The notes beneath the pieces are model-generated. The model was not told where the DNA came from. It was given only the letters and a program-made list of their open reading frames with translations, and searched no databases. A stretch of 64,000 nucleotides of DNA from IMG/VR virus record IMGVR_UViG_3300005366_000002, positions 32,001-96,000 of that record; one strand, written 5' to 3'. Numbering within the stretch: position 1 is the stretch's first letter; each line of letters opens with the position of its first letter. Positions 2,131 through 53,619 of the stretch are shown here, piece after piece. The DNA comes from a virus. The translations under genes were made by a program, and so were the position numbers.

Positions 2131-2397
2131 ATGGGTAACAGCCGCATCAACAGGTCCTGCACGAAGCCCAGAGCGGTCATCAAGGAGCTCCCGCAGTTCG
2201 GCATGGGTCACCGCGAGGCGACCATCCAGCTCAAGCCGGGCGAGCGCGTGCTGATCATCCACGAAGACCTCATGTACCAGTTCGACGGCGATCCGCTCGA
2301 TGACGTGCTGTCCGGCGACGCTGTCCTGGGCCTCCATCGCGTCGCCTGGGACAACCTCGAGCAGAAGTGGATGGACGTCGGGGAGAAGCAACCATGA
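2131..2397 (+). CDS. hypothetical protein
   Basis: GGAG RBS, ATG 2131, coupled to neighbouring genes. Confidence 0.55.
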   Translation: MGNSRINRSCTKPRAVIKELPQFGMGHREATIQLKPGERVLIIHEDLMYQFDGDPLDDVLSGDAVLGLHRVAWDNLEQKWMDVGEKQP

Positions 2398-3230
2398 GCC
2401 TGGTGACTTCGAGGATCGGGCCTCCCATCGAGGATCTTCCGCTCTACGACACGATGGAGATCATCTGTTCGATCGGCAAGCAGGGTCACCCGGGCCAGTA
2501 CATCATGGGCCGTCCAGAGGCATCCCGGTTGCCTCACGCTTCCGGGACCGGCAACGTAGTCGTCCAGATCCTGACCCACGACCCTGAAGACCCGAACAAC
2601 CTGCGGACCGAGCAGGAGTTCAAGGCGTTGGCCACGCAGATGTTCAGCAGGATGCTGGACGTCACGTGGGACCACATCCAGAGAAACCGTGCTGCGACAG
2701 CAGCGCAAGAAGCCGAGAAGGCAGAGGAAGAACAGATGAACCACGAGCACAAGCACATCGTCACCGACGAGGTCGCGGAAGACGAGCACATCGACCTGTC
2801 GAAGGGCGACCTCCCGGCCGACGCCGACGACTCCATCCTCGACACCGACGCGGACGCCGGCGACGAGGCCGTCGATGAACTCCCGCCGGACGCGGAAGAG
2901 GTGCAGATGGACGGCGAAGCCATCCCCGAGCTGGCCAAGAAGCAGGACTGGGGCGACGAGCCCAAGGCGCGCGTGGGCTCCGAAGGCACGTCTTCGTCCG
3001 ACGAGGTGTGCACCAAGGGCGACAACACGGCGAACCTGAAGCAGCCCACGACCGGCCGCACCCGCACCATGCTCCACGTCAAGGCCGGTGACGACCTGTG
3101 GTCTCCGACCGAAGATGAGCTGGCCAAGCTGAAGAAGCAGTTCGAGGACGCGGCCGTCGCCGACGTGGTGGTCGCGACCAAGCACAACGTCCACGTCGAG
3201 GTCACGCACTTCTTCATCGAGGACAAGTGA
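2394..3230 (+). CDS. hypothetical protein with acidic linker and small C-terminal domain
   Basis: ATGA overlap with previous stop; D/E-rich middle; C-terminal LHVKAGDDLWSPTEDEL segment. Confidence 0.65.
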   Translation: MSLVTSRIGPPIEDLPLYDTMEIICSIGKQGHPGQYIMGRPEASRLPHASGTGNVVVQILTHDPEDPNNLRTEQEFKALATQMFSRMLDVTWDHIQRNRAATAAQEAEKAEEEQMNHEHKHIVTDEVAEDEHIDLSKGDLPADADDSILDTDADAGDEAVDELPPDAEEVQMDGEAIPELAKKQDWGDEPKARVGSEGTSSSDEVCTKGDNTANLKQPTTGRTRTMLHVKAGDDLWSPTEDELAKLKKQFEDAAVADVVVATKHNVHVEVTHFFIEDK

Positions 3231-3232
3231 CC

Positions 3233-3583
3233 ATGGAACTCAGAGAACCCAAGGCAGGGACCGAGTACAGGTTCCTCTGCCTCCACGGTGGCTCGATGTT
3301 CCAGCACCTGTCCGGTACGCTCGTCTCGGACTTGCGCATCGAGAACCACGGTGAGGCCGGCCCGATCTACCACTTCACGTGCGACGACATGCAAGGCCAC
3401 ACCGCGGACGGGTCCGTGCTGTTCGAGAACACGCTCGCCGCGGCCGTGGCCGCCGAGCAGATCGCCAGCAACTGCGAGCAGATCGACCGGCTCAGGAAGG
3501 CCAACGAGGAACTCCTCGCAACCCACACGCTGCACGTGAAGCGTCGTCTCTGGCGTGAGGCCGAGACGTTCTCCAAACCCTGA
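3233..3583 (+). CDS. hypothetical protein
   Basis: ORF coupled to upstream stop; codon bias. Confidence 0.55.
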   Translation: MELREPKAGTEYRFLCLHGGSMFQHLSGTLVSDLRIENHGEAGPIYHFTCDDMQGHTADGSVLFENTLAAAVAAEQIASNCEQIDRLRKANEELLATHTLHVKRRLWREAETFSKP

Positions 3584-3597
3584 GGGCTCAGTTCATC

Positions 3598-3810
3598 ATG
3601 GTCTACATGAAGATCCGCTACCAGGGCATCTGGCCTACGACGTCCAAGCGCCCTGACGTGATCTCCCTGTCTCGCGTGCCCTGCCTTGGCGAGTACGTGG
3701 ACGTCGACAACATGGTCTGCCAGGTCACCTCGGTGATTCATATCGCGGCCACGCCGGGCGATCAGCGTGTTCCTCAGATCGTCGCACAGGTCTCCGTCCA
3801 ACCGACTTGA
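3598..3810 (+). CDS. hypothetical protein
   Basis: short ORF with codon bias, followed by a hairpin. Confidence 0.5.
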   Translation: MVYMKIRYQGIWPTTSKRPDVISLSRVPCLGEYVDVDNMVCQVTSVIHIAATPGDQRVPQIVAQVSVQPT

Positions 3811-3821
3811 GGCCTCCCCAG

Positions 3822-3856
3822 GAGAGGAGTGAGGAGCAATCTTCACTCCTCTCTTC
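3822..3856 (+). terminator. stem-loop, probable terminator
   Basis: GAGAGGAGTGA...TCACTCCTCTC 11-bp inverted repeat after the gene cluster; weak U-tail. Confidence 0.5.
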
Positions 3857-3868
3857 ACGTCTGGCTCG

Positions 3869-3877
3869 CAATTTTAT
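3869..3877 (+). promoter_or_regulatory. putative late/structural promoter motif CAATTTTAT
   Basis: one of 8 copies of CAATTT(T/C)A(T/G) seen upstream of structural operons. Confidence 0.6.
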
Positions 3878-3956
3878 GGTCGACATACATGCCGGGAGCC
3901 CCTTGAGGCTCCCGTGCTCTCTTGCTCTCTCATTCAAAGACCGTAGAGGACGCGAC

Positions 3957-5582
3957 GTGGAAACCTACAAGCTCACCGCTTCCCAGCTCACCAATCTCCT
4001 GCAGATCCTGGGTGCGCTGGTGGCCGACTACATCTCGAACCCCAAGGGTCCGATGAAGGCTGACCTGAAGCCCTACGTGAAGACGGTGCTCGACTGGGCG
4101 GCCCTGCCTGGCCTCAAGCCTGCCATCAAGGAGGCTCAGACCGGCGGTGACAAGCTCAGCGCGCTCTACAACCTGGGCGTGGAGCTCAAGGATGCGTTCC
4201 CTGACTTCAAGGGCAACCGCCAGTTCACGACGCCCGAGCTGAAGATGCTGAACGCTCTGCGGGCCTACCTGGCGACCGACAGCGAGAACGCGCTCAACTA
4301 CATCCGGGCCAACGCGCAGGTCTTCGGCTCCCCGGAGCTGGCGGCCGTGTTCGCTCCCCCGATCCCGAAGGCCGACAACGCGGCGCTCCGTCGTGTCGTC
4401 AAGTCGCTGGTCGGTCGTGACGGGACACACCTGACGAAGACAGAAGCCGAGATGCTGAAGTCGACGAACCCGAAGGAGTACGACCTCTACGTCCAGCACC
4501 GCAAGGCCCACAACGCCGAGTTCAAGGCCACACTGATCAACTACGTGCGGTCCCAGGGCGAGTCGAAGGTCGACTACGCGAAAGCCTACAAGTACCTGCT
4601 GAGCCAGGGCTTCACCCACTCCATGGTGCCTGGCTTCACCGGGCTCATCGACGACAAGGGCAACTGGTACACCAAGGACGGCGAGGCCATCGGCGGAGTC
4701 CCCAATCTCAGCACGTACACCCACGTGGTCATGAACGACGGGAAAGACCCCGAGGCCTCGTGGATCTTCAAGGCGTTCAAGCCCGATGGCGAGTACGCCT
4801 ACTGCTACACGCAGAACTTCCGCCGCTCCCAGAGCTCCGCGAAGTACGAGCACGTCGCCGAGCTGATGGCCAACATCGGGCACATCCAGAACGCGTGGCG
4901 CGCCAAGATCAAGAAGTGGAACCCGGCCGACAAGCTCTGCGTGTCGGCCGTCGTGCTGGAAATCCTGTACAGCTACGCGGCCCGGATCGGCAGTGCCCCT
5001 GGCCGTGGTGCGGGGACCTTGCTGGTCAAGAATACGAGCATCACGCAGGCCGGGGTCAACCTGGCCTACATCGGCAAGGACTCGATCCCGACCAAGCACA
5101 TCATCCGAAGCGCTGACTCCCCGGAGCATGCGCTGCTGGTCAAGCGGCTGAAGGAACTCATCGAGGGCAAGAAGCCCAGCATGTTCCTGTTCACCGTGAA
5201 GTCCGGTGAGAGGATGGCACGCGTCGGCCCCGGTGACGTCAACAAGGCGTTCCACACGTTCGGCGCGCCGGAGACCGTGACGGTCCACAAGCTCCGCACC
5301 TGCCGGGGCACCACGCTGTTCAAGCAGTTGATGGACAAGGACGAGCAGAACCGTCGTCCGCCGGCGACCGAGAAGGACGCCCTGCTCCGCTACAAGGACA
5401 TGACGGCCAAGGTCGGTGAGCTCCTGAACCACAAGCGTGGTGTCGGGACCGACAAGGAGTCCGTGACAGGGACCACGGCTGCCCTCTCCTACATCGACGG
5501 CGACCTCCAGGCCGAGCTCTGGGAGCGCTGGGGCTTCCGCCCGCCTGCGTTCTTGGAGAAGCTGCTCCGCGACGACTCCTGA
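3957..5582 (+). CDS. type IB DNA topoisomerase with long N-terminal extension
   Basis: catalytic R-K-R-H-Y set in order: AARIG, YIGKD, HKLRT, LLNHK, ALSYID; GTG start with AGAGGA RBS. Confidence 0.8.
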   Translation: METYKLTASQLTNLLQILGALVADYISNPKGPMKADLKPYVKTVLDWAALPGLKPAIKEAQTGGDKLSALYNLGVELKDAFPDFKGNRQFTTPELKMLNALRAYLATDSENALNYIRANAQVFGSPELAAVFAPPIPKADNAALRRVVKSLVGRDGTHLTKTEAEMLKSTNPKEYDLYVQHRKAHNAEFKATLINYVRSQGESKVDYAKAYKYLLSQGFTHSMVPGFTGLIDDKGNWYTKDGEAIGGVPNLSTYTHVVMNDGKDPEASWIFKAFKPDGEYAYCYTQNFRRSQSSAKYEHVAELMANIGHIQNAWRAKIKKWNPADKLCVSAVVLEILYSYAARIGSAPGRGAGTLLVKNTSITQAGVNLAYIGKDSIPTKHIIRSADSPEHALLVKRLKELIEGKKPSMFLFTVKSGERMARVGPGDVNKAFHTFGAPETVTVHKLRTCRGTTLFKQLMDKDEQNRRPPATEKDALLRYKDMTAKVGELLNHKRGVGTDKESVTGTTAALSYIDGDLQAELWERWGFRPPAFLEKLLRDDS

Positions 5583-5609
5583 GACCCGCTCTGTTCACAA
5601 GGAACTGCA

Positions 5610-5876
5610 ATGAAACTCGTGCTCCAAGCCAAGCAGCGTCTCCTGGCGCTGACCAAGAAGGTCGAGGCGGCCCCAAAAGGCTCCGACTTCCAGGTGAAGA
5701 TCAACTACGACGATCCGACCGGGAAGGGCATGGCGTCGACCAACGTGATGGTCCGCGACTGCCGCGATGCGGACCATGCCCGCAAGATCTTCAAGGAGCA
5801 GCACGCTCACCACTTCAAGAACGCGAAGATCGAGAAGGTGACGAAGCTCAAGGGCAACGGCCAATCCGAGGACTGA
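5610..5876 (+). CDS. small protein with N-terminal LQAxxRLxA tag (putative internal virion protein)
   Basis: MKLVLQAKQRLLA; AAGGA RBS. Confidence 0.7.
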   Translation: MKLVLQAKQRLLALTKKVEAAPKGSDFQVKINYDDPTGKGMASTNVMVRDCRDADHARKIFKEQHAHHFKNAKIEKVTKLKGNGQSED

Positions 5877-31938: not shown

Positions 31939-33435
31939 ATGACCAAGACAGTCCGAGCCGCTTCCACCACGATGACGCATGACGGCAACGACCTCAAGCT
32001 GAAGGTGGAGCAGGGCGACCAGGATCTGGAGAACTCGCAGAAGTCGATGATGCTCATCGACCCTGACGAGCTCGAAAGCGGCTTCACGCATTCGACGGAG
32101 ACCCCCAAGATGCCGGGTGACAAGAAGGCGCCGACGACGGCTGCCGTCAAGAAGGTGGAGGCCACGGCCGCCAAGCCGGCACCGAAGGCCCCCGTGAAGG
32201 CCAACGGCGCACCCGCGCAAGACCTGGTGGACAAGGAAGTGCCGAAGGGCGCTCCCGACGGCACCGTCGAGCTCGCGGAGCTGCCGAACGAGGAAGATCC
32301 CTCGGCCGGCTACCTCGAGAAGGAAGCGGGCATGCCCGTCCTGAACAACGCGTCGGTCGACGACAGCGAGTTCCACGACGAAGGCGAGAACGACATCGAC
32401 AGCGCCAACGAGTTCGACGATCTGCCGAACATGACGGCCGCGCCGATGATGGACGAAGGCCTGGACGGCGAGTTCGAGGACCTGGGCACCGGTGAGCCGG
32501 TCGCCGACGAGAACGCGGTGGAAGCCGAAGGCATGGCCGGTACGCCGAACATGGCGCCGGCTGCCGAGTGCGCGGACTTCGCGTCCCCGGAATCGACCGC
32601 CGAGGAAATGCCGCTGCTGGACGTCGACGGCGTGCCGGACGACGAAGGCACCGACGACCTCGCGTTCGCCTGCGTGGCCGGCAACGTGCTGGTCCTCCGC
32701 AAGGACCGCGTGATCGCTTCGATGGGCCCCAAGCAGGCCAAGAAGATCGGCGCTGCCGACGTCTACGACGGCGAGCAGTACCAGGCCGTGACGGCGCACG
32801 CGATCGAGCAGAAGGGCCTCCGCAAGGGCCTGGTGCAGCAAGGCTTCGTCCTGTCCAAGGTCAAGATGACGGCCAGCGCGGCGACCGCCAAGGTCGTGGC
32901 CGCCAAGGTGGAAGCGGGCCTCAAGGCACGTCACGAGCAGCTCGCTGCCCGCGACAAGGCCCTGGAGCACTCCATCGCGATCGCCTCCGTCGGCATCAAC
33001 AAGCGCTTCTTCAAGGACGCGGAGAACCCGCTGAAGGACGCCCTGATCGCCGAGCTGAAGACCGCCGGCGTCCGTGGCGCCGAGAAGCTGGTCGCCAACG
33101 CGTTCGCCGAGCACGGCCCGGGCTACGCCAAGTCGATCATGACGCTGGCCAACCGCATCGTCGCTGCTCCGGAAGAAGTGCGCAACCAGTACGCTGACGC
33201 GCTGGACATGACGTCCGACGAGGACTTCATGGACGACGAGCCGGCGATGGAAGTCGAGGGCGGCGAAGGCTGCATCGACGGCGAAGACGAGTTCGAGGAC
33301 CTGGGCCACGGCGCGACCGTGACCGCTGCCCTCAGCGCTCCGTCGATTCGCAAGTACCCGGGCGCGCTGCTCGCCGGCATGAAGGACGCCGGCTCGCATG
33401 CCCTGCTCTTCGGCGACACCCCGCTCGTGGGCTGA
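31939..33435 (+). CDS. putative prohead scaffold/core protein
   Basis: very acidic, low-complexity N-half; many [VIL]-x-A sites; two genes before MCP; AAGGAG RBS. Confidence 0.6.
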   Translation: MTKTVRAASTTMTHDGNDLKLKVEQGDQDLENSQKSMMLIDPDELESGFTHSTETPKMPGDKKAPTTAAVKKVEATAAKPAPKAPVKANGAPAQDLVDKEVPKGAPDGTVELAELPNEEDPSAGYLEKEAGMPVLNNASVDDSEFHDEGENDIDSANEFDDLPNMTAAPMMDEGLDGEFEDLGTGEPVADENAVEAEGMAGTPNMAPAAECADFASPESTAEEMPLLDVDGVPDDEGTDDLAFACVAGNVLVLRKDRVIASMGPKQAKKIGAADVYDGEQYQAVTAHAIEQKGLRKGLVQQGFVLSKVKMTASAATAKVVAAKVEAGLKARHEQLAARDKALEHSIAIASVGINKRFFKDAENPLKDALIAELKTAGVRGAEKLVANAFAEHGPGYAKSIMTLANRIVAAPEEVRNQYADALDMTSDEDFMDDEPAMEVEGGEGCIDGEDEFEDLGHGATVTAALSAPSIRKYPGALLAGMKDAGSHALLFGDTPLVG

Positions 33436-34203: not shown

Positions 34204-35274
34204 ATGCAAAAGGCAACTCTCCGTGCCGCCAAGAACCCCGTCGTGCTGGCCACGGAGCTGAAGCTCGCCGGTTCCGACGAGTACGCGATCGGCCGCTTCG
34301 GTTCCGGCAAGGGCGAACTGAACGCGTCCAACAAGAAGGACCTGCTGGCCCAGCAGCAGAAGTTCCTGCAGGCCGCGTCGCAGGGCAACATGCTGGCGAT
34401 CACGGCGGCCCAGTCCAAGGACATGGTGCACGCCGCGTTCAACAGCCCGGAAGCCCACCGCGTCCTCGGCGAGAAGATCAGCGAGTCGCTGTACATCACC
34501 GCGAACCGCCAGGGCTTCATGCGCAAGTACCTCGCGAAGATCGACGTCCAGCAAGGCTCGATCCCGCGCTTCCCGCTGCGCACCAAGAACGTGACCGCCG
34601 TCTGGTCGACCTCGCCGACCAAGGTCGAGTCGCAGATCACCCGCGACAAGTGGTTCACGCCGCCCGAACTGTCGGTCGTGGCCCGCCCGTTCATCACGCA
34701 GATCGACCTGCACCAGTCGAGCGGCGACCTCCTGCAGGAGAAGTACATCGAGGCCGTCGAGGCCACGATGGTCGCCGAAGATCGCCTGTACTACAACCAG
34801 CTGCAAGCGCTGGTGGGCGTCGACAACAACCTGACCATCGTGTCGGGCCAGCTGACGCCGTACTCGCTGATGACGGTCGTCACGAACGTCACCCGCTGGG
34901 GCCTGAAGGGCGCGCACCTGCTGATGGCGACGGACCTGTGGCAGGACGTGGTCGGCAACTCCGACTTCTTCACCGCCATCGACCCGGTGGCCCGCCACGA
35001 ACTGCTGCTGACCGGCGAGCTGGGCACGATGTACGGCATGACCGTCACGTCGGACGCCTTCCGTCACCCGGAGCACAAGGTCCTGGGCCAGGGCGAGTTC
35101 TACGTGATCTCGGACGCGCTGAACCACGGCGCGTACTCGGATCGCGGCGGCCTCCAGTCGACCCCGATCGACATCTCGATGGAGAAGGTGCCGGGCCGCG
35201 GCTTCGTCGTGCACGAAGCGCTGGCCGTGTCGGTGGCGAACAGCCGCTCCTTCGCCAAGGGCTACCGCCTGTAA
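34204..35274 (+). CDS. major capsid protein (HK97 fold)
   Basis: 356 aa; strongest codon bias; order protease-scaffold-decoration-MCP; GELGTMYGMTVTSD segment. Confidence 0.8.
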   Translation: MQKATLRAAKNPVVLATELKLAGSDEYAIGRFGSGKGELNASNKKDLLAQQQKFLQAASQGNMLAITAAQSKDMVHAAFNSPEAHRVLGEKISESLYITANRQGFMRKYLAKIDVQQGSIPRFPLRTKNVTAVWSTSPTKVESQITRDKWFTPPELSVVARPFITQIDLHQSSGDLLQEKYIEAVEATMVAEDRLYYNQLQALVGVDNNLTIVSGQLTPYSLMTVVTNVTRWGLKGAHLLMATDLWQDVVGNSDFFTAIDPVARHELLLTGELGTMYGMTVTSDAFRHPEHKVLGQGEFYVISDALNHGAYSDRGGLQSTPIDISMEKVPGRGFVVHEALAVSVANSRSFAKGYRL

Positions 35275-44428: not shown

Positions 44429-44493
44429 GTCCTAGCGAATCCCGTATCGGATAGCTCTCATTGCGCACTGACGCTCACAATAGAGGAACTCTC

Positions 44494-45234
44494 ATGTTCA
44501 ACACCGAAACCGTTGCGATCACCGACTACCGCCTGATGACGCCTTCGCTGGCCAAGGTCATCGTCTCCTTCACCGGCAACATCGACCGCCGCTTCCTCCA
44601 CGAGAAGCTGACCGAGATGTTCGACGGCTGCGCTCAACCGGTGCGCGCGTCGTTCAAGCAGATCCAGGAAGGCGTGGCCGTCGGCTTCATCAAGGCCAAC
44701 CGCGCGATCCGCATGGTCGACGAGAAGCAACTGAAGGCCTACCGCCTGATGGGCTCGAACATCATGATGGACGAGTCGGACAAGAGCCTGTGGGAAGTCA
44801 AGACCGGCGCGTCCGGCAAGTACCTGGCCCGCCACGGCCAGGAAGACCTGCAGGCGCTGGTGCAGGCCTCGAAGATCACCCGCACCGACATCCCGCGCAT
44901 CGCTCACCTGACCATCGCCCGCGCGGCCGCCGCCGAGCTGGTGTCGTTCGTGGACGACGAAGGCGACGTGGATCACGGCTTCGCCTACCAGACCTCCGAG
45001 TCGCAGGTGCGCGTCGTCTCGTTCGCCCGCAAGATGCCCATGACGGTCGACTACGACGCCGTCGTCGGGATCGTGCCGATGGACGTGCCGGCCCACGTGC
45101 GCGCGCAGGTCATCGCCTCGATGACCCCGGAGGAAAAGAAGCAGGCCAACGCCTACTGGACGCGCCTCTACAGCTACGCGCCGGACTACATGCGCGAGAC
45201 GATCAAGCAGGTGAACGAAGGCACGTTCGCCTGA
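44494..45234 (+). CDS. putative virion structural/core protein
   Basis: strong codon bias; GAGGA RBS; own promoter motif and terminator. Confidence 0.6.
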   Translation: MFNTETVAITDYRLMTPSLAKVIVSFTGNIDRRFLHEKLTEMFDGCAQPVRASFKQIQEGVAVGFIKANRAIRMVDEKQLKAYRLMGSNIMMDESDKSLWEVKTGASGKYLARHGQEDLQALVQASKITRTDIPRIAHLTIARAAAAELVSFVDDEGDVDHGFAYQTSESQVRVVSFARKMPMTVDYDAVVGIVPMDVPAHVRAQVIASMTPEEKKQANAYWTRLYSYAPDYMRETIKQVNEGTFA

Positions 45235-45720: not shown

Positions 45721-45765
45721 GAAGGGCCCCACGGGATTCAGTTCCCGTGGGGCCCTTCTGCTTTT
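45721..45765. terminator. terminator at the convergence of + and - gene blocks
   Basis: GAAGGGCCCCACGGGA...TCCCGTGGGGCCCTTC 16-bp perfect stem. Confidence 0.75.
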
Positions 45766-46169: not shown

Positions 46170-46597
46170 TGGTCAGGAAGGTCGATGGTTGCGCGGTAGA
46201 CGAGTGACACGTAGGCCCTGCAGAACGCGACGAGTCGTGTGGGCCCGTAGCACATGATCTCCAAGTCCTTGCCTGTCGATCGTCCATTGTAGACGCGGAT
46301 CTCGCAGCACTGAATCCGGCCGTGCTGAGTCTCGGCATGCCAGAACGAGACGCCATCGAGGGCCTCGATGATCGGACCTGCCCAGTCCCAATCCTTCGTG
46401 GGCTTGAACGGAACGAACTCACCTTCGCTGTCGTAGCCGAGGCCGTGGAAGTTCTTGCCCAGGGAGTAGACCCTGTATTCACCGCTGCCAAGACGGCCAA
46501 CGCTGAAGAACGGCGCACCTTCACGCTGACCGTAGACGAGGGCGACGGCCGCGTCCAGTGCCGAGCCCTCCATGTGAATCACCAGATGTTCGCTCAT
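46166..46597 (-). CDS. DUF2591/NinX-like phage protein
   Basis: MEGSALDAAVA...FKPTKDWDWAGPIIE...GPTRLVAFCRAYV. Confidence 0.65.
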   Translation of the reverse strand: MSEHLVIHMEGSALDAAVALVYGQREGAPFFSVGRLGSGEYRVYSLGKNFHGLGYDSEGEFVPFKPTKDWDWAGPIIEALDGVSFWHAETQHGRIQCCEIRVYNGRSTGKDLEIMCYGPTRLVAFCRAYVSLVYRATIDLPDQ

Positions 46598-47913
46598 ACG
46601 TCCGCCAGATTTGCCATGGTCTCGGAGCTCTCTGTTGATGTGTCCGGCATCGACTCGACGGGCATGACACGCATCCACGCCCAGTGGAAGCCGACCTCGA
46701 ACGGATAGGAGCCGCTGTTGCGCGCCTTCGGTTGCTCGACCTTGATTCGGCCGATCTCCTTCTCGCGCTCTTCCTTCTTCGTGACCCAGATCCACGAGTT
46801 GTTCGAGTGCTCGCTGATGGCCTGCGCGTAGCGGATCTTGCCGTCCTGGTTGACCTGACACAGCAGCACGTTGACCGTGTTGGTGTTGTCCGCGTTGATC
46901 TTCGCAGTGCGAGCGATCGCACCCAGGGCCTGCCACGAGTCCTCACCGGTCGTGCCCTTCAGCAGCGAGATGTAGTCGATGATCCGCACGTCGCAGTCGT
47001 AAGCGTTGACCGCGGCCAGCACGTCCTCGATCGACACGTCCTCGTCCGGCTTGTAGATCGTGAGGCGGCCGCCCTTCTTCGCGATGTGCTTCATCCACCG
47101 CTGGAACTTGGCGTACCCTGCATCGCGTTCGACGTCGGTCAGCTTGCCGGTCAGGATCCGCGTGACGTCCACCTTGTTGAGGTTGGCGCCGATGCGGCTC
47201 ATCATCTCGTCCTTGGTCATCTCCAGAGGGACGATCACGACCTTGTAGCCCTGCTGCGCGATGTTCATCGCGAGCTGACAGGCCAGCAACGACTTGCCAC
47301 CACCGGACGAGGCGCCGACGGTGAACAGGCCGCCGCGAAGCAGACCGCCAGAGCGCTCGTCGAACGGTCCGATCATCGTGGGGATCACGTTCTCGGTCTT
47401 GTCACCGTAGAACAGGTTCTTGACGGCCTCACGGCTGTTGTTGTTCAGCCCGAAGTGCAGGAAGTTGTTCTTCTGCGACTTGTTGGCCCGAGCCGAAGCG
47501 ATGGTCGACGACGCCTGCTCCATCAGCTTGTCGATATCGCACTTCGATCCGCTCATCGCTTCGTCGATGGCGAACTTCAGCTCGTTCATCATCCGGTACT
47601 GCCGGTACGTGCTGAGGATCTTGACGGCCTTGCGCGCGTCGTCCTTCGTCTGGATCGCTGCCTCCGAGTCGCGGAAGAACGACCGCGCTTCCTCAGACAG
47701 GTCAGGGTCGGAGATCACCAGCTTGTAGAGCGGCGGCTCACCGGTGTCGACCATCTGCTTGCGGATGGCCTTCAGCACCTCCTTCGATTCGGGCGCGTCG
47801 AAGAACGACTCGTCCACCGAGCTGAGAATCGAACCGGCGATGACGCGGTTCTTGTTTGTCATCCCCCGCAGAACCATGAGTTCGGTGCGGGGGCTTACGG
47901 TCTTGACTGCCAT
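46594..47913 (-). CDS. replicative DNA helicase (DnaB/gp41-like)
   Basis: GASSGGGKS Walker A, PLEM, IIDYISL, LLCQVN, QPKARN. Confidence 0.88.
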   Translation of the reverse strand: MAVKTVSPRTELMVLRGMTNKNRVIAGSILSSVDESFFDAPESKEVLKAIRKQMVDTGEPPLYKLVISDPDLSEEARSFFRDSEAAIQTKDDARKAVKILSTYRQYRMMNELKFAIDEAMSGSKCDIDKLMEQASSTIASARANKSQKNNFLHFGLNNNSREAVKNLFYGDKTENVIPTMIGPFDERSGGLLRGGLFTVGASSGGGKSLLACQLAMNIAQQGYKVVIVPLEMTKDEMMSRIGANLNKVDVTRILTGKLTDVERDAGYAKFQRWMKHIAKKGGRLTIYKPDEDVSIEDVLAAVNAYDCDVRIIDYISLLKGTTGEDSWQALGAIARTAKINADNTNTVNVLLCQVNQDGKIRYAQAISEHSNNSWIWVTKKEEREKEIGRIKVEQPKARNSGSYPFEVGFHWAWMRVMPVESMPDTSTESSETMANLADV

Positions 47914-47934: not shown

Positions 47935-47941
47935 CTATTTA
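47935..47941 (-). promoter_or_regulatory. putative middle promoter motif TAAATAG
   Basis: 21 nt upstream of helicase start; overlaps upstream stop codon. Confidence 0.5.
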
Positions 47942-48673
47942 CAGGTCCAGCTCGCGGTACATGACGGACCCGTCGCGGGCGAAGGTGTAGAGGTAGTCGC
48001 CGTTCTGGGAAATCGACTCGTCCTCTTCGCCGATGTCGATGTAGACGCGGATGCCAAGGAGCTGGCCGATCATGCCGGACTCCTCGACCTCGGCGAACGA
48101 CGGCGGACAGCTCATGCACGTCATGATCGCCTTGGTGCACATGAGGCGTACCAGCACGCGCTTGTTGATCAGGACAGCGTTGACACCCAGGTTCGACGAC
48201 AGTGCCTGGAAAGCGCCCAGCGAGAACGTGAGAGGGAGGCCGCGCAATGCATCCTGGGAGCGCATCTTGGCGCGCAGCTCCTGCATGGTCGTCCGCTTGA
48301 CCATCGGGTACTCGACGAAGTAGGTGCCGCCGCCCACCGCGTGGTTCTTGACGACCAGCGCGCTCATGTGGGACACGAAGCGGCTCTCGGGCGTCAGGTA
48401 GGCGTCGGTCAGCATCTGGGTGTCGCCGATGTGGCCGATCTGGCCTTGCAGGACATGTCCGTTGTCCGCCGACTGGCGGATCATGCGGATCGTCAGCTCC
48501 TGCGAGCACATGAGCTCCCAGAGGCCGGCACCGACGACGATCGCTTCGACCTCGTCGTCTTCGGCCAGCTTCTTCAGGAGATCACGCGACCAGAACTGCG
48601 GCTCGGACTTCACGATGTCCTTGCCGTAGGTACGAGCTTCGAACTCGACGAGGGGTTTGACTTGAGCATTCAT
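47939..48673 (-). CDS. protein made of two MCP-like segments
   Basis: aa 43-100 align without gaps to MCP aa 237-294; second copy contains GMIGQLLGIRVYID. Confidence 0.6.
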   Translation of the reverse strand: MNAQVKPLVEFEARTYGKDIVKSEPQFWSRDLLKKLAEDDEVEAIVVGAGLWELMCSQELTIRMIRQSADNGHVLQGQIGHIGDTQMLTDAYLTPESRFVSHMSALVVKNHAVGGGTYFVEYPMVKRTTMQELRAKMRSQDALRGLPLTFSLGAFQALSSNLGVNAVLINKRVLVRLMCTKAIMTCMSCPPSFAEVEESGMIGQLLGIRVYIDIGEEDESISQNGDYLYTFARDGSVMYRELDL

Positions 48674-49251
48674 CAGATGATCTCCTGGACTTGCTTCACG
48701 CTGGTGTTGGCGAAGTAGGCGATGCCGTGGCAGGGCACGTGCAGCCGCGTTTGGGCAAACGAAATCGGGTCTTCGCCGGCGACGACCACGATCTTGGGAA
48801 CCGACGAGAACCGCTCGATGATGTCGCGGGCCTTGTCGTACTTGAGGTAGTTGGACTTCGTGCTCAGGTTCGAGATCACGATTATCGACGGACTGAGGTC
48901 ACGCTTGAGGATCGGGTTGTCATAGCCGTTGAAGACCGGCTCCCAGATCGGGTCGGCGTTGATGCCGAGGCGCAGCCTGTGGATCTCGACCAGGTAGGCC
49001 GCGAAATACTTGGCCTTCTCGTCGTCCGGTGATCCAGCAACAACGTAGGTCAGCGGAGTCCTCGGCGACCTGGTGAACAGGTCCAGCGAGTTCTGCTGTA
49101 CCTTGGCTTCGATGATCTTCTTCTCGCGCCGCGAGCTCTCGGTCATGAAAGCCTTCGGCTCCCAGAGCAGGCGCTTGCGACGGAACGCCGTGCAGTCCGG
49201 GAACATGGCGAGTGTGTCTCTCCCGACCTTGATGTAGTTCTTCTCGGTCAC
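48673..49251 (-). CDS. hypothetical replication-cluster protein (possible degenerate P-loop/loader fold)
   Basis: coupled ORF; alpha/beta pattern without an intact Walker A. Confidence 0.5.
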   Translation of the reverse strand: MTEKNYIKVGRDTLAMFPDCTAFRRKRLLWEPKAFMTESSRREKKIIEAKVQQNSLDLFTRSPRTPLTYVVAGSPDDEKAKYFAAYLVEIHRLRLGINADPIWEPVFNGYDNPILKRDLSPSIIVISNLSTKSNYLKYDKARDIIERFSSVPKIVVVAGEDPISFAQTRLHVPCHGIAYFANTSVKQVQEII

Positions 49252-49429: not shown

Positions 49430-50959
49430 CTAGAGCTCGAACTTGGTGCCCATACCGGGCCGATCCTTCGCCTTGAAGTAGGCATCCAGCAGCGCCTGGT
49501 CCCGCTCGCCGATGTGCGGCTTGAGCTTGGGCTTCAGCACGTTGAAGAACTCGTTGCGCAGGCAGTTCCGGCGCACGTTCATGTTGTCGAGGAACAGGCG
49601 GATGACCGGCTGCGGCTTGTCGTCCATGGCGGTCAGCACGCGCATCATCCGCTGCTCCGCGTTCTCCTTGTTCGACGACATGGAGACCTCGTAGAGCATC
49701 GAGGCCCGCGGGATGTTGAGGCCGACGGACAGCTTCTTGGTCGTGCCCACCAGGATCTTCACGCGGTACTGGGTGGCCCTGGCCAGCGTCTCGTCCAGGA
49801 TCTCCTTCTTGATCCCACCGTAGTACGGGTACGCGACCTTGCGACCTGCCAGCCGGTTGATCTCGTCGATGCACTTCTGCACCGGCTTGACCTGCGTGAA
49901 CGGGATCATGACGAGGTGACCAGCCTCCATGTCCTTGACGGCCATGCGCGCGATCAGCTTGATCCGGTCCTTGTCGTTCTCCAGCGAGGAGACCATACGT
50001 GTCCACGGCACGTTGCCCTTGTAGGTCTTCACGTACTTGGTCGCCGTGACCTTGACCACCGGGCGCAGGCGTTCGACGATGACCTCGTGGATGATTCGAC
50101 CGACGACGTGACGGACCAGCACGAACTTGGCATCCTTGCGCGACGGAGTAGCCGACAGGCCGATCATCCAGCGCACGTTGAACTTGGCGAGGATGCCGAT
50201 GTAGCGATCAGCGGCACCCATGTGGCATTCGTCGATGAACATGACCTCGAACTCATCGCGCAGTTCATCGAGGATCTTCTGGCCCTTGTCCGAGTAGAAC
50301 AGGTTTGGCGTGCAGAGGCAGATGTCGTGGGTCTTGAAGTCCTCGAGGGTCTTGCACAGCTTGATCCGCTTCGGGTCGATGTCCGTCAGCTTGGGCGCCT
50401 TCTTCTTCGGGTTGCCGAGGAAGGTGTCGATGAAGCCGTTGAGCCACTCGCGCTGACCAGCGATGATCAGCGTCTTCCGCGAGAGCCGGCAGATGGTGGC
50501 AGTGCCACTGACGGTCTTGCCGGACCGCGGAGGCGCTTTCATCACGCCCTTCTTCTTGCGGATCATCGTCTCGACGGCCTCTTCCTGGCCTTCGCGGAAC
50601 GACCCTGTGAACTTGATCGGCTTGATCGGCTTGCGTGGGCTCTTGTCCCGAAGGTTGATCTCGTAGCCCTTGGCCTCCAGCAGGTGCTCGATCACCGGGT
50701 ACGACCCGACCGGCACCTTCAGGTACTTGTTCTCGCCGACCTTCTGCACCGTGCCCAGCTCGTAGCCGCTCTTGAACGCTGGACAGTTGTCGCAGATGTC
50801 GCAGTGCCGCTCCGCCAGCCACTCACAGCTCTTGCAGGCCTTCTCCTCGTAGAACTTGAAGGTCAGCTTCTCCTTGATCCTGTCGACGGTCGGCCGATCG
50901 AGGCTCTTGATCGGGATGAACACGCCTTCGCGCTTGGTGACGGTGAGTTCCTTGGTCAT
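49430..50959 (-). CDS. SF2 DNA helicase (UvsW-like)
   Basis: APPRSGKT, IDECH, GLSATP, SVGLNIP, EQRMMRV. Confidence 0.85.
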   Translation of the reverse strand: MTKELTVTKREGVFIPIKSLDRPTVDRIKEKLTFKFYEEKACKSCEWLAERHCDICDNCPAFKSGYELGTVQKVGENKYLKVPVGSYPVIEHLLEAKGYEINLRDKSPRKPIKPIKFTGSFREGQEEAVETMIRKKKGVMKAPPRSGKTVSGTATICRLSRKTLIIAGQREWLNGFIDTFLGNPKKKAPKLTDIDPKRIKLCKTLEDFKTHDICLCTPNLFYSDKGQKILDELRDEFEVMFIDECHMGAADRYIGILAKFNVRWMIGLSATPSRKDAKFVLVRHVVGRIIHEVIVERLRPVVKVTATKYVKTYKGNVPWTRMVSSLENDKDRIKLIARMAVKDMEAGHLVMIPFTQVKPVQKCIDEINRLAGRKVAYPYYGGIKKEILDETLARATQYRVKILVGTTKKLSVGLNIPRASMLYEVSMSSNKENAEQRMMRVLTAMDDKPQPVIRLFLDNMNVRRNCLRNEFFNVLKPKLKPHIGERDQALLDAYFKAKDRPGMGTKFEL

Positions 50960-53556: not shown

Positions 53557-53619
53557 AACAAAGAAGGCCCCGGCAAGACAAGCTCACCAGGGCCTTGAAA
53601 CCCAGGCCGAGACCTGGGG
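53557..53619 (-). terminator. tandem hairpins/terminator after the structural gene pair
   Basis: on - strand CCCAGG...CCTGGG-TTT then AAGGCCC...GGGCCTT-CTTTGTT. Confidence 0.6.

Follow-up and report, generated by a model that had tools for sequence, protein, structure and literature searches.

A phiRSL1-like jumbo phage encodes a predicted tandem of diverged capsid A-domains in its replication operon

The replication operon of a phiRSL1-like jumbo phage encodes a 244-aa protein for which the identification as a tandem of two strongly diverged A-domains, each of about 122 aa, of the phrog_2522 type of major capsid protein (MCP) is well supported. Our confidence in the whole explanation is roughly 0.5, which weighs this identity together with a weakly supported mode of action as a capsid mimic. 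The gene was found in a window of 64,000 nucleotides (nts), positions 32,001 to 96,000 of the IMG/VR record IMGVR_UViG_3300005366_000002, a 104-kb viral contig with an estimated completeness of 44%. The MCP of this phage is 55 to 67% identical to the MCPs of Ralstonia phage phiRSL1, Burkholderia phages BcepSauron, Saruman, and BCSR5, and Achromobacter phage Motura, and is related to gp27 of phage G (PDB 6WKK). The closest relatives identified by MCP have 88 to 89% identity and are on contigs of up to 238 kb. The MCP of phage PaBG, which has an HK97 fold according to HHpred (PMC7412058), is more distant, with 49% identity over the A-domain segment. The features of the window discussed below are given in Table 1.

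Table 1. Positions of the 244-aa gene, its parts, and related features in the window
Feature	Position (nt)	Strand	Basis
Major capsid protein (P0001), phrog_2522 type	34204..35274	+	phrog_2522, E = 4e-89; PDB 6WKK, E = 4e-11
MCP stretch matched by the 244-aa protein, about residues 203-311	34810-35136	+	
Two-way terminator hairpin closing the minus-strand replication operon	45721..45758	.	16-bp stem
Downstream neighbor, DnaB-like replicative helicase	46594..47913	-	PF03796 and phrog_19
Gene for tandem A-domain-like protein, 244 aa (P0002)	47939..48673	-	ORF list; ORFan by sequence search
C-terminal domain, residues 123-244, more diverged putative second copy	47942..48307	-	N/C comparison, family profile, ESM Atlas
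N-terminal domain, residues 1-122, MCP A-domain homologue	48308..48673	-	Family HMM, BLASTP, ESM Atlas
Core match, residues 42-109: strand, LW helix, G-x-[IL]-G, [ST]-D-A-[YF], P-E	48347..48550	-	HMM alignment
AGGAG ribosome-binding site (48686-48682) and ATG overlapping the upstream TGA (TGATG)	48671..48686	-	Read from sequence
Upstream neighbor, 192 aa, phrog_20094	48673..49251	-	"DNA polymerase" or "exonuclease" in relatives' annotation
UvsW-like helicase, one gene upstream of the phrog_20094 gene	49430-50959	-	Domain match
Upstream minus-strand terminator at the other end of the block	53564-53596	-	Strong hairpin

The reading frame is intact over its 735 nt, and its GC contents at the three codon positions (0.61/0.38/0.89) are the same as those of the neighboring genes, a pattern that the alternative frames overlapping it do not have. 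The ATG is preceded, at a distance of 8 nt, by an AGGAG sequence. The minus-strand block runs from a 357-aa gene through small genes, the UvsW-like helicase, the phrog_20094 gene, the 244-aa gene, and dnaB to two small genes, and no minus-strand terminator-like site was found between the hairpins that bracket it. The hairpin at the dnaB end is perfect and GC rich, is followed by T-rich sequence on both strands, and is placed between the converging virion and replication blocks. The codon-position GC, the ribosome-binding site, the TGATG overlap, and the bracketing terminators together indicate that this is a real, translationally coupled gene of the replication operon. The gene is about 12.7 kb from the MCP gene and on the opposite strand. 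Thus, the original prediction was correct about the ORF and about its location, in a replication operon and on the other strand from the head module; of the two helicases said to flank it, the DnaB-like one is indeed adjacent, but the phrog_20094 gene intervenes on the UvsW-like side. Because it is encoded in the replication operon, the protein is probably made together with the replication proteins, ahead of the late head proteins.

By sequence search, the 244-aa protein is an ORFan, with no detectable homologue in the databases searched. There were no matches at E values of up to 10 in Pfam (with the whole protein or with either half) or in PHROGs, nor in phage genomes by tblastn with the same limit. 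PDB sequences, 2PK8 included, gave no match to the protein or to a three-sequence profile, and no homologue was found among 5.8e9 protein clusters or among 1.84e9 representatives; in the search of the clusters, the identical protein appeared on four contigs.

The relationship to the MCP was first proposed from an ungapped alignment of residues 43 to 100 with MCP residues 237 to 294, and recounting gave the same 11 identities in 58 positions. By itself, this pairwise sequence match is marginal (BLASTP E = 0.015; Smith-Waterman shuffle P of about 0.016), and the identity to the MCP is only about 20%. An HMM of the full-length MCP family matched the protein at positions 236 to 307 only, with a score of 4.1 bits versus 4.0 bits for the best of 1,000 shuffles. 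We compared the N-terminal half with four HMMs of the A-domain that were built without the 244-aa protein. It scored 10.4 bits (E = 3e-5) against the HMM of the phage's own MCP group, 14.2 bits when five more distant MCPs were added, and 23.8 bits (E = 1.7e-9) when three free-standing domains, from the proteins Motura gp073 and Lu11 gp106, were added too; the three free-standing domains alone gave 17.1 bits. In all four comparisons, the 1,000 shuffles stayed at or below 6.4 bits. For the family HMM that gave 23.8 bits, the best of the 1,000 shuffles scored 6.0.

The core of the protein aligns with A-domain profile positions 42 to 109, which are MCP residues 236 to 303, and its motifs are also present in Motura gp073 and in both domains of Lu11 gp106. 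When the A-domain profile was compared with all 1,018 six-frame ORFs of the 104-kb record, only the MCP (E = 1.6e-67) and the 244-aa protein (E = 4.3e-6) matched, and the next ORF had an E value of 5.9; no A-domain copy beyond these two was found in the record. Among the 65 genes of the window, the MCP profile and the profile of the 244-aa protein's domain are reciprocal best non-self matches. The best pairwise matches of the N-terminal half are domain 2 of Lu11 gp106 (BLASTP E = 7e-4) and Motura gp073 (E = 0.002), and both alignments agree residue for residue with its MCP register. Comparisons by hhalign remained weak (P of 0.043, 0.006, and 0.011), although none of 300 column shuffles scored as high as the real alignment. 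In a direct profile match to HK97 gp5, the expected register (gp5 residues 252 to 285) appeared but was not significant, gp5 being too distant. We conclude that the N-terminal domain is, with near certainty, homologous to the MCP A-domain. The original prediction went further and called the modules copies of the phage's own MCP segment; derivation from the MCP lineage holds up, but the data cannot show descent from this phage's own MCP gene.

The second copy that had been proposed for the C-terminal half is probably also present, although the similarity is weaker. The two halves align locally (P = 0.005) with 21 identities in 120 positions (17.5%) and a constant offset of 122 to 123 residues; among the motifs, LWELMCSQ pairs with LVRLMCTK and GQIGHIGDTQMLTD with GMIGQLLGIRVYID. 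Against a family profile that included the N-terminal half, the score of the C-terminal half was reached by 2 of 1,000 shuffles, and the match was colinear over positions 34 to 90. The P value for the C-terminal half is about 0.002 to 0.005. The C-terminal domain is without most of the motifs, and we consider it a real but far more eroded copy for which each piece of evidence is weak when taken singly. A tandem two-domain architecture is therefore likely.

The structural evidence comes from ESM Atlas models because the confidence of AlphaFold2 was too low (pLDDT 30.6 for the protein without an alignment and 41 in another run). ESM Atlas contains its own model of the 244-aa protein (pLDDT 0.67), and every structural neighbor listed for it is a capsid protein cluster, aligning separately to residues 7 to 123 or to residues 125 to 243. 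A single-domain relative (P0124) from the locus that we call L006 aligned to capsid clusters with TM scores of 0.54 to 0.66 over 98 to 111 of its 116 residues, and its feature scores to the capsid and encapsulin families were 0.91 to 0.93. The putative assignment of the modules to the A-domain is based on the Atlas matches, on their size (about one-third of the MCP), on the phrog_2522 profile positions, on HK97 topology, and on the place of the matched segment after a long helix, modeled with low confidence at MCP residues 173 to 203.

A complete HK97 fold consists of an N-arm, an E-loop, a P-domain with the spine helix, and an A-domain (PMC5701804). The alignments of the 244-aa protein cover only MCP residues 203 to 311 or so, and its modules have about 122 aa; the gene is also outside the head module with its portal, protease, and scaffold genes. 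As had been predicted, the protein consists of capsid A-domain-like modules and the rest of the fold is absent. Without an N-arm, E-loop, and P-domain, it would be unable to form a shell.

We compared the region that separates dnaB from the phrog_20094 gene in 50 loci, 4 from cultured phages and 46 from IMG/VR that were found by DnaB alignment. This slot is between 0 and 3.7 kb long. Motura, BCSR5, and several close relatives have nothing in it; it contains one 58-aa ORF in phiRSL1, and gp312 to gp317, including a Mom-like DNA modification gene (L003:5135-6970), in BcepSauron. Other loci have Dam-like, DnaQ-like, and kinase-like genes and many ORFans in the slot. Across the 50 loci, a counterpart of the 244-aa gene was present in the slot only in the closest relative, L006, whose DnaB, helicase, and phrog_20094 proteins are, respectively, 73%, 69%, and 66% identical to those of this phage. 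The counterpart (P0122), directly upstream of dnaB, has a single domain of 117 aa and is only about 19% identical to the 244-aa protein, versus 66 to 73% for the flanking genes. BLASTP with P0122 gave an E value of 0.008 to the 244-aa protein and 0.028 to the MCP, and the alignments among the three proteins all agree at a G-x-x-G...D motif. P0122 is itself an ORFan, with no homologues found in protein databases, and the MCP is absent from the L006 contig. Among the 46 IMG/VR loci, no other significant A-domain ORF was found within 5 kb of dnaB. Two ORFs starting with MNSHQRR and containing TG-x-[IL]-GT, in L046 and L018, were considered as A-domain fragments but were rejected (E of about 1 over 4,708 ORFs).

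Several other features of the slot were observed. The basic heptapeptide MN[SA][HR]QRR starts six otherwise unrelated small ORFs (L012:4671-4979, L015:4485-4955, L016:4458-4679, L018:3740-3913, L024:4632-4964, which is BcepSauron gp317, and L046:4763-4960), five of which are the last before dnaB. This start could be a common leader or a recombination junction of swapped cassettes; the start of the 244-aa protein, MNAQ, is only a partial match to it. A second recurrent family, mostly of about 110 to 130 aa (156 aa in L015), has a motif like C-D-x-[ST]-N-N-P-P-x-V-V (L015:4485-4955, L018:3299-3625, L023:4626-4949, L025:4587-4982, L026:4634-4969, and L045:4610-4972), and no similarity between this family and the 244-aa protein was detected. 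In L018, a Dam-like DNA methyltransferase with FAGG...DPPY motifs occupies positions 3958 to 4827, apparently as two ORFs, and the slot seems to collect DNA modification genes. In L050, dnaB itself (2359-5693) is apparently split into an N-terminal part (2359-3186) and a C-terminal part (5019-5693) with a gap of about 1.8 kb, which could be an intein, an intron, or another mobile insertion.

Within a capsomer, the A-domains surround a 5- or 6-fold axis and pack against each other side by side. These interfaces would be retained in a soluble A-domain protein, and the tandem form could give a pseudohexameric ring as a trimer. Because it is through the A-domain helices that subunits contact each other in capsomer facets (PMC8346489), the 244-aa protein may oligomerize and may bind to partners shared with the capsomer core or with unassembled MCP. 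It could thus act as a soluble mimic of either, and it would bind whatever usually binds the MCP A-domain, be it a host capsid sensor or a capsid protein encoded by a rival phage or satellite. Several observations favor an accessory role or a role in conflict: the hypervariable slot, the anti-restriction-type genes that occupy it in relatives, the extreme divergence of the protein, and the lack of the gene in most relatives. Taken by itself, a mimic or conflict role of any kind has somewhat less than an even chance of being correct.

Many bacterial defense systems are triggered by capsid proteins, and a phage-encoded copy of a capsid domain is therefore a candidate for interfering with such sensing or with the capsid assembly of a rival. 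That the protein specifically blocks an immune sensor is nevertheless unlikely. CapRelSJ46 is activated by binding a capsid protein (PMC13728456), so a mimic might trigger the sensor and would have to bind without activating it. The mutations by which phages escape staphylococcal Thoeris are in the P-loop and E-loop, not in the A-domain (PMC12578639). Both findings make a simple titrating decoy doubtful, a role that the original prediction had put forward along with regulation of capsid assembly. The broader conjecture, that jumbo phages have repeatedly excised the A-domain and express it early, as one domain or as a tandem, to occupy capsid sensors without activating them, we likewise regard as a long shot. 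If true, a sensor-occupying A-domain mimic would be, as far as we know, the first anti-defense protein that copies the immune trigger itself.

The 244-aa protein might instead regulate or chaperone the phage's own capsid assembly, its modules binding newly made MCP and delaying or guiding capsomer formation. The interface-forming domain is common to both proteins, and the homologue in Lu11, gp106, adjoins head-related genes. However, most close relatives, with MCPs that are 65 to 89% identical, do not have such a gene in the slot, so it appears to be dispensable for assembly; in addition, the gene is in the replication operon, away from the head genes, and identity to the MCP has fallen to about one residue in five. 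We judge this role to be improbable. A role in replication, in which the capsid domain was recruited as a ring-forming accessory of DnaB or the replisome and has no link to capsids left, is slightly more doubtful. The gene is immediately upstream of dnaB and translationally coupled, and Motura gp073 is among exonuclease, PhoH-like, and clamp-loader genes; yet no nucleic acid-binding or loader signature was found in the protein with Pfam, and a conserved partner of the helicase is not expected from a slot that Motura, BCSR5, and several close relatives leave vacant and that others fill with unrelated genes.

That the gene is a relic in decay, left from an old partial duplication of a capsid gene and functionless despite its open frame, is quite improbable. 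Its ORFan status, its extreme divergence, and the loss of most motifs from the C-terminal domain would fit, but its frame is intact and has the genome's coding GC3, its start is coupled and is preceded by a good ribosome-binding site, four contigs carry the identical protein, and Lu11 and Motura have genes of the same architecture. Chance resemblance to capsid proteins, to which the single pairwise E value of 0.015, the low hhalign probability, and the lack of Pfam, PHROG, and PDB sequence matches might point, is very improbable given the profile E value of 1.7e-9 with 0 of 1,000 shuffles, the genome-wide E value of 4.3e-6, and structural neighbors that are all capsid proteins.

The reading as a tandem of capsid A-domains can be compared with several known systems. 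The phrog_2522 MCPs (the phiRSL1 ORF, PaBG gp80, and phage G gp27) are the source lineage and have motifs in common with the 244-aa protein at MCP residues 236 to 311; unlike it, they have the N-arm, E-loop, and P-domain with the spine helix and build a shell. Searching with the MCP A-domain segment by tblastn revealed extra matching sites in Motura and Lu11. Motura gp073 (YP_009903914.1, 116 aa, a hypothetical protein) matches its own MCP with an E value of 1.7e-14 and the MCP of this phage with 3e-8. Pseudomonas phage Lu11 gp106 (YP_006382636.1, 287 aa) has two A-domain copies, with E values of 1.5e-11 and 1.1e-7 to this phage's MCP. Both proteins match phrog_2522 only at positions 189 to 268 of the 318 in the profile, gp106 twice. 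Like them, the 244-aa protein has similarity restricted to the A-domain segment and a gene separate from that of the MCP, and it thus belongs with the free-standing phrog_2522 A-domain proteins. We found no published family name for such phage proteins, and the literature searched had no description of phage proteins that mimic capsids or serve as capsid decoys, or of truncated paralogues of capsid proteins.

Like the 244-aa protein, Lu11 gp106 is a tandem of modules that consist of only the A-domain, and its gene is separate from that of the true MCP (gp065). It differs in being much less diverged from MCPs, in having domains that are 38% identical to each other (versus 17.5%), and in adjoining genes for a head-tail connector and a phrog_17573 protein rather than dnaB. 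Given these neighbors, the free-standing A-domain class may have a virion-associated role. The phrog_17573 protein of Lu11, gp105 (L062:3090-3950), is encoded immediately beside gp106, and a phrog_17573 gene is also present in our window (44461-45234, plus strand), about 2.7 kb from the 244-aa gene; this pairing may be chance or a functional link. RefSeq labels gp106 (L062:3978-4841; NC_017972.1, 77477-78340) "major head protein," which is an annotation error since the true MCP is gp065. Motura gp073, like the 244-aa protein, is a free-standing A-domain protein encoded among replication and recombination genes in a phage of the phiRSL1 group, and it aligns with residues 8 to 92 in a consistent register. 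In contrast, it has a single domain and is at another locus, with PhoH-like, exonuclease, and clamp-loader genes nearby. Among cultured phages, no orthologue of gp106 was detectable and gp073 is a singleton; the only relatives of either are true MCPs. As the slot counterpart was found only in L006 and gp073 and gp106 are singletons, the class is patchy, lineage specific, and fast evolving. Annotation pipelines mislabel its genes, as with gp106, or miss them, as with the ORFan described here.

The closest cellular parallel in composition is the Family 4 or "A-domain" encapsulins (PF08967, DUF1884; PDB 2PK8), proteins of about 100 aa that consist of only the HK97 A-domain (Andreas and Giessen 2021, PMC8346489). 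They occur in hyperthermophilic archaea and two Bacteroidetes genera, have a single domain, are encoded in two-gene operons downstream of hydrogenase, OsmC, GAPDH, or DeoC, and have been proposed to self-assemble via the A-domain helices (PMC8346489). The 244-aa protein likewise appears, from the models, to have only the HK97 A-domain. It does not match PF08967/DUF1884, as the whole protein or as halves, at E values of up to 10, and it is encoded in a phage replication operon rather than in a two-gene enzyme operon of a thermophile. Family 4 encapsulins are cellular and single domain, whereas this protein is viral and tandem. We found no other published A-domain-only HK97 proteins. A viral counterpart of these cellular proteins is now seen: A-domain proteins of nonstructural jumbo phage operons, single and tandem, evolving very fast, and present in the cultured phages Motura and Lu11. 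What is new here is the viral, tandem, replication-operon form of an A-domain-only HK97 protein.
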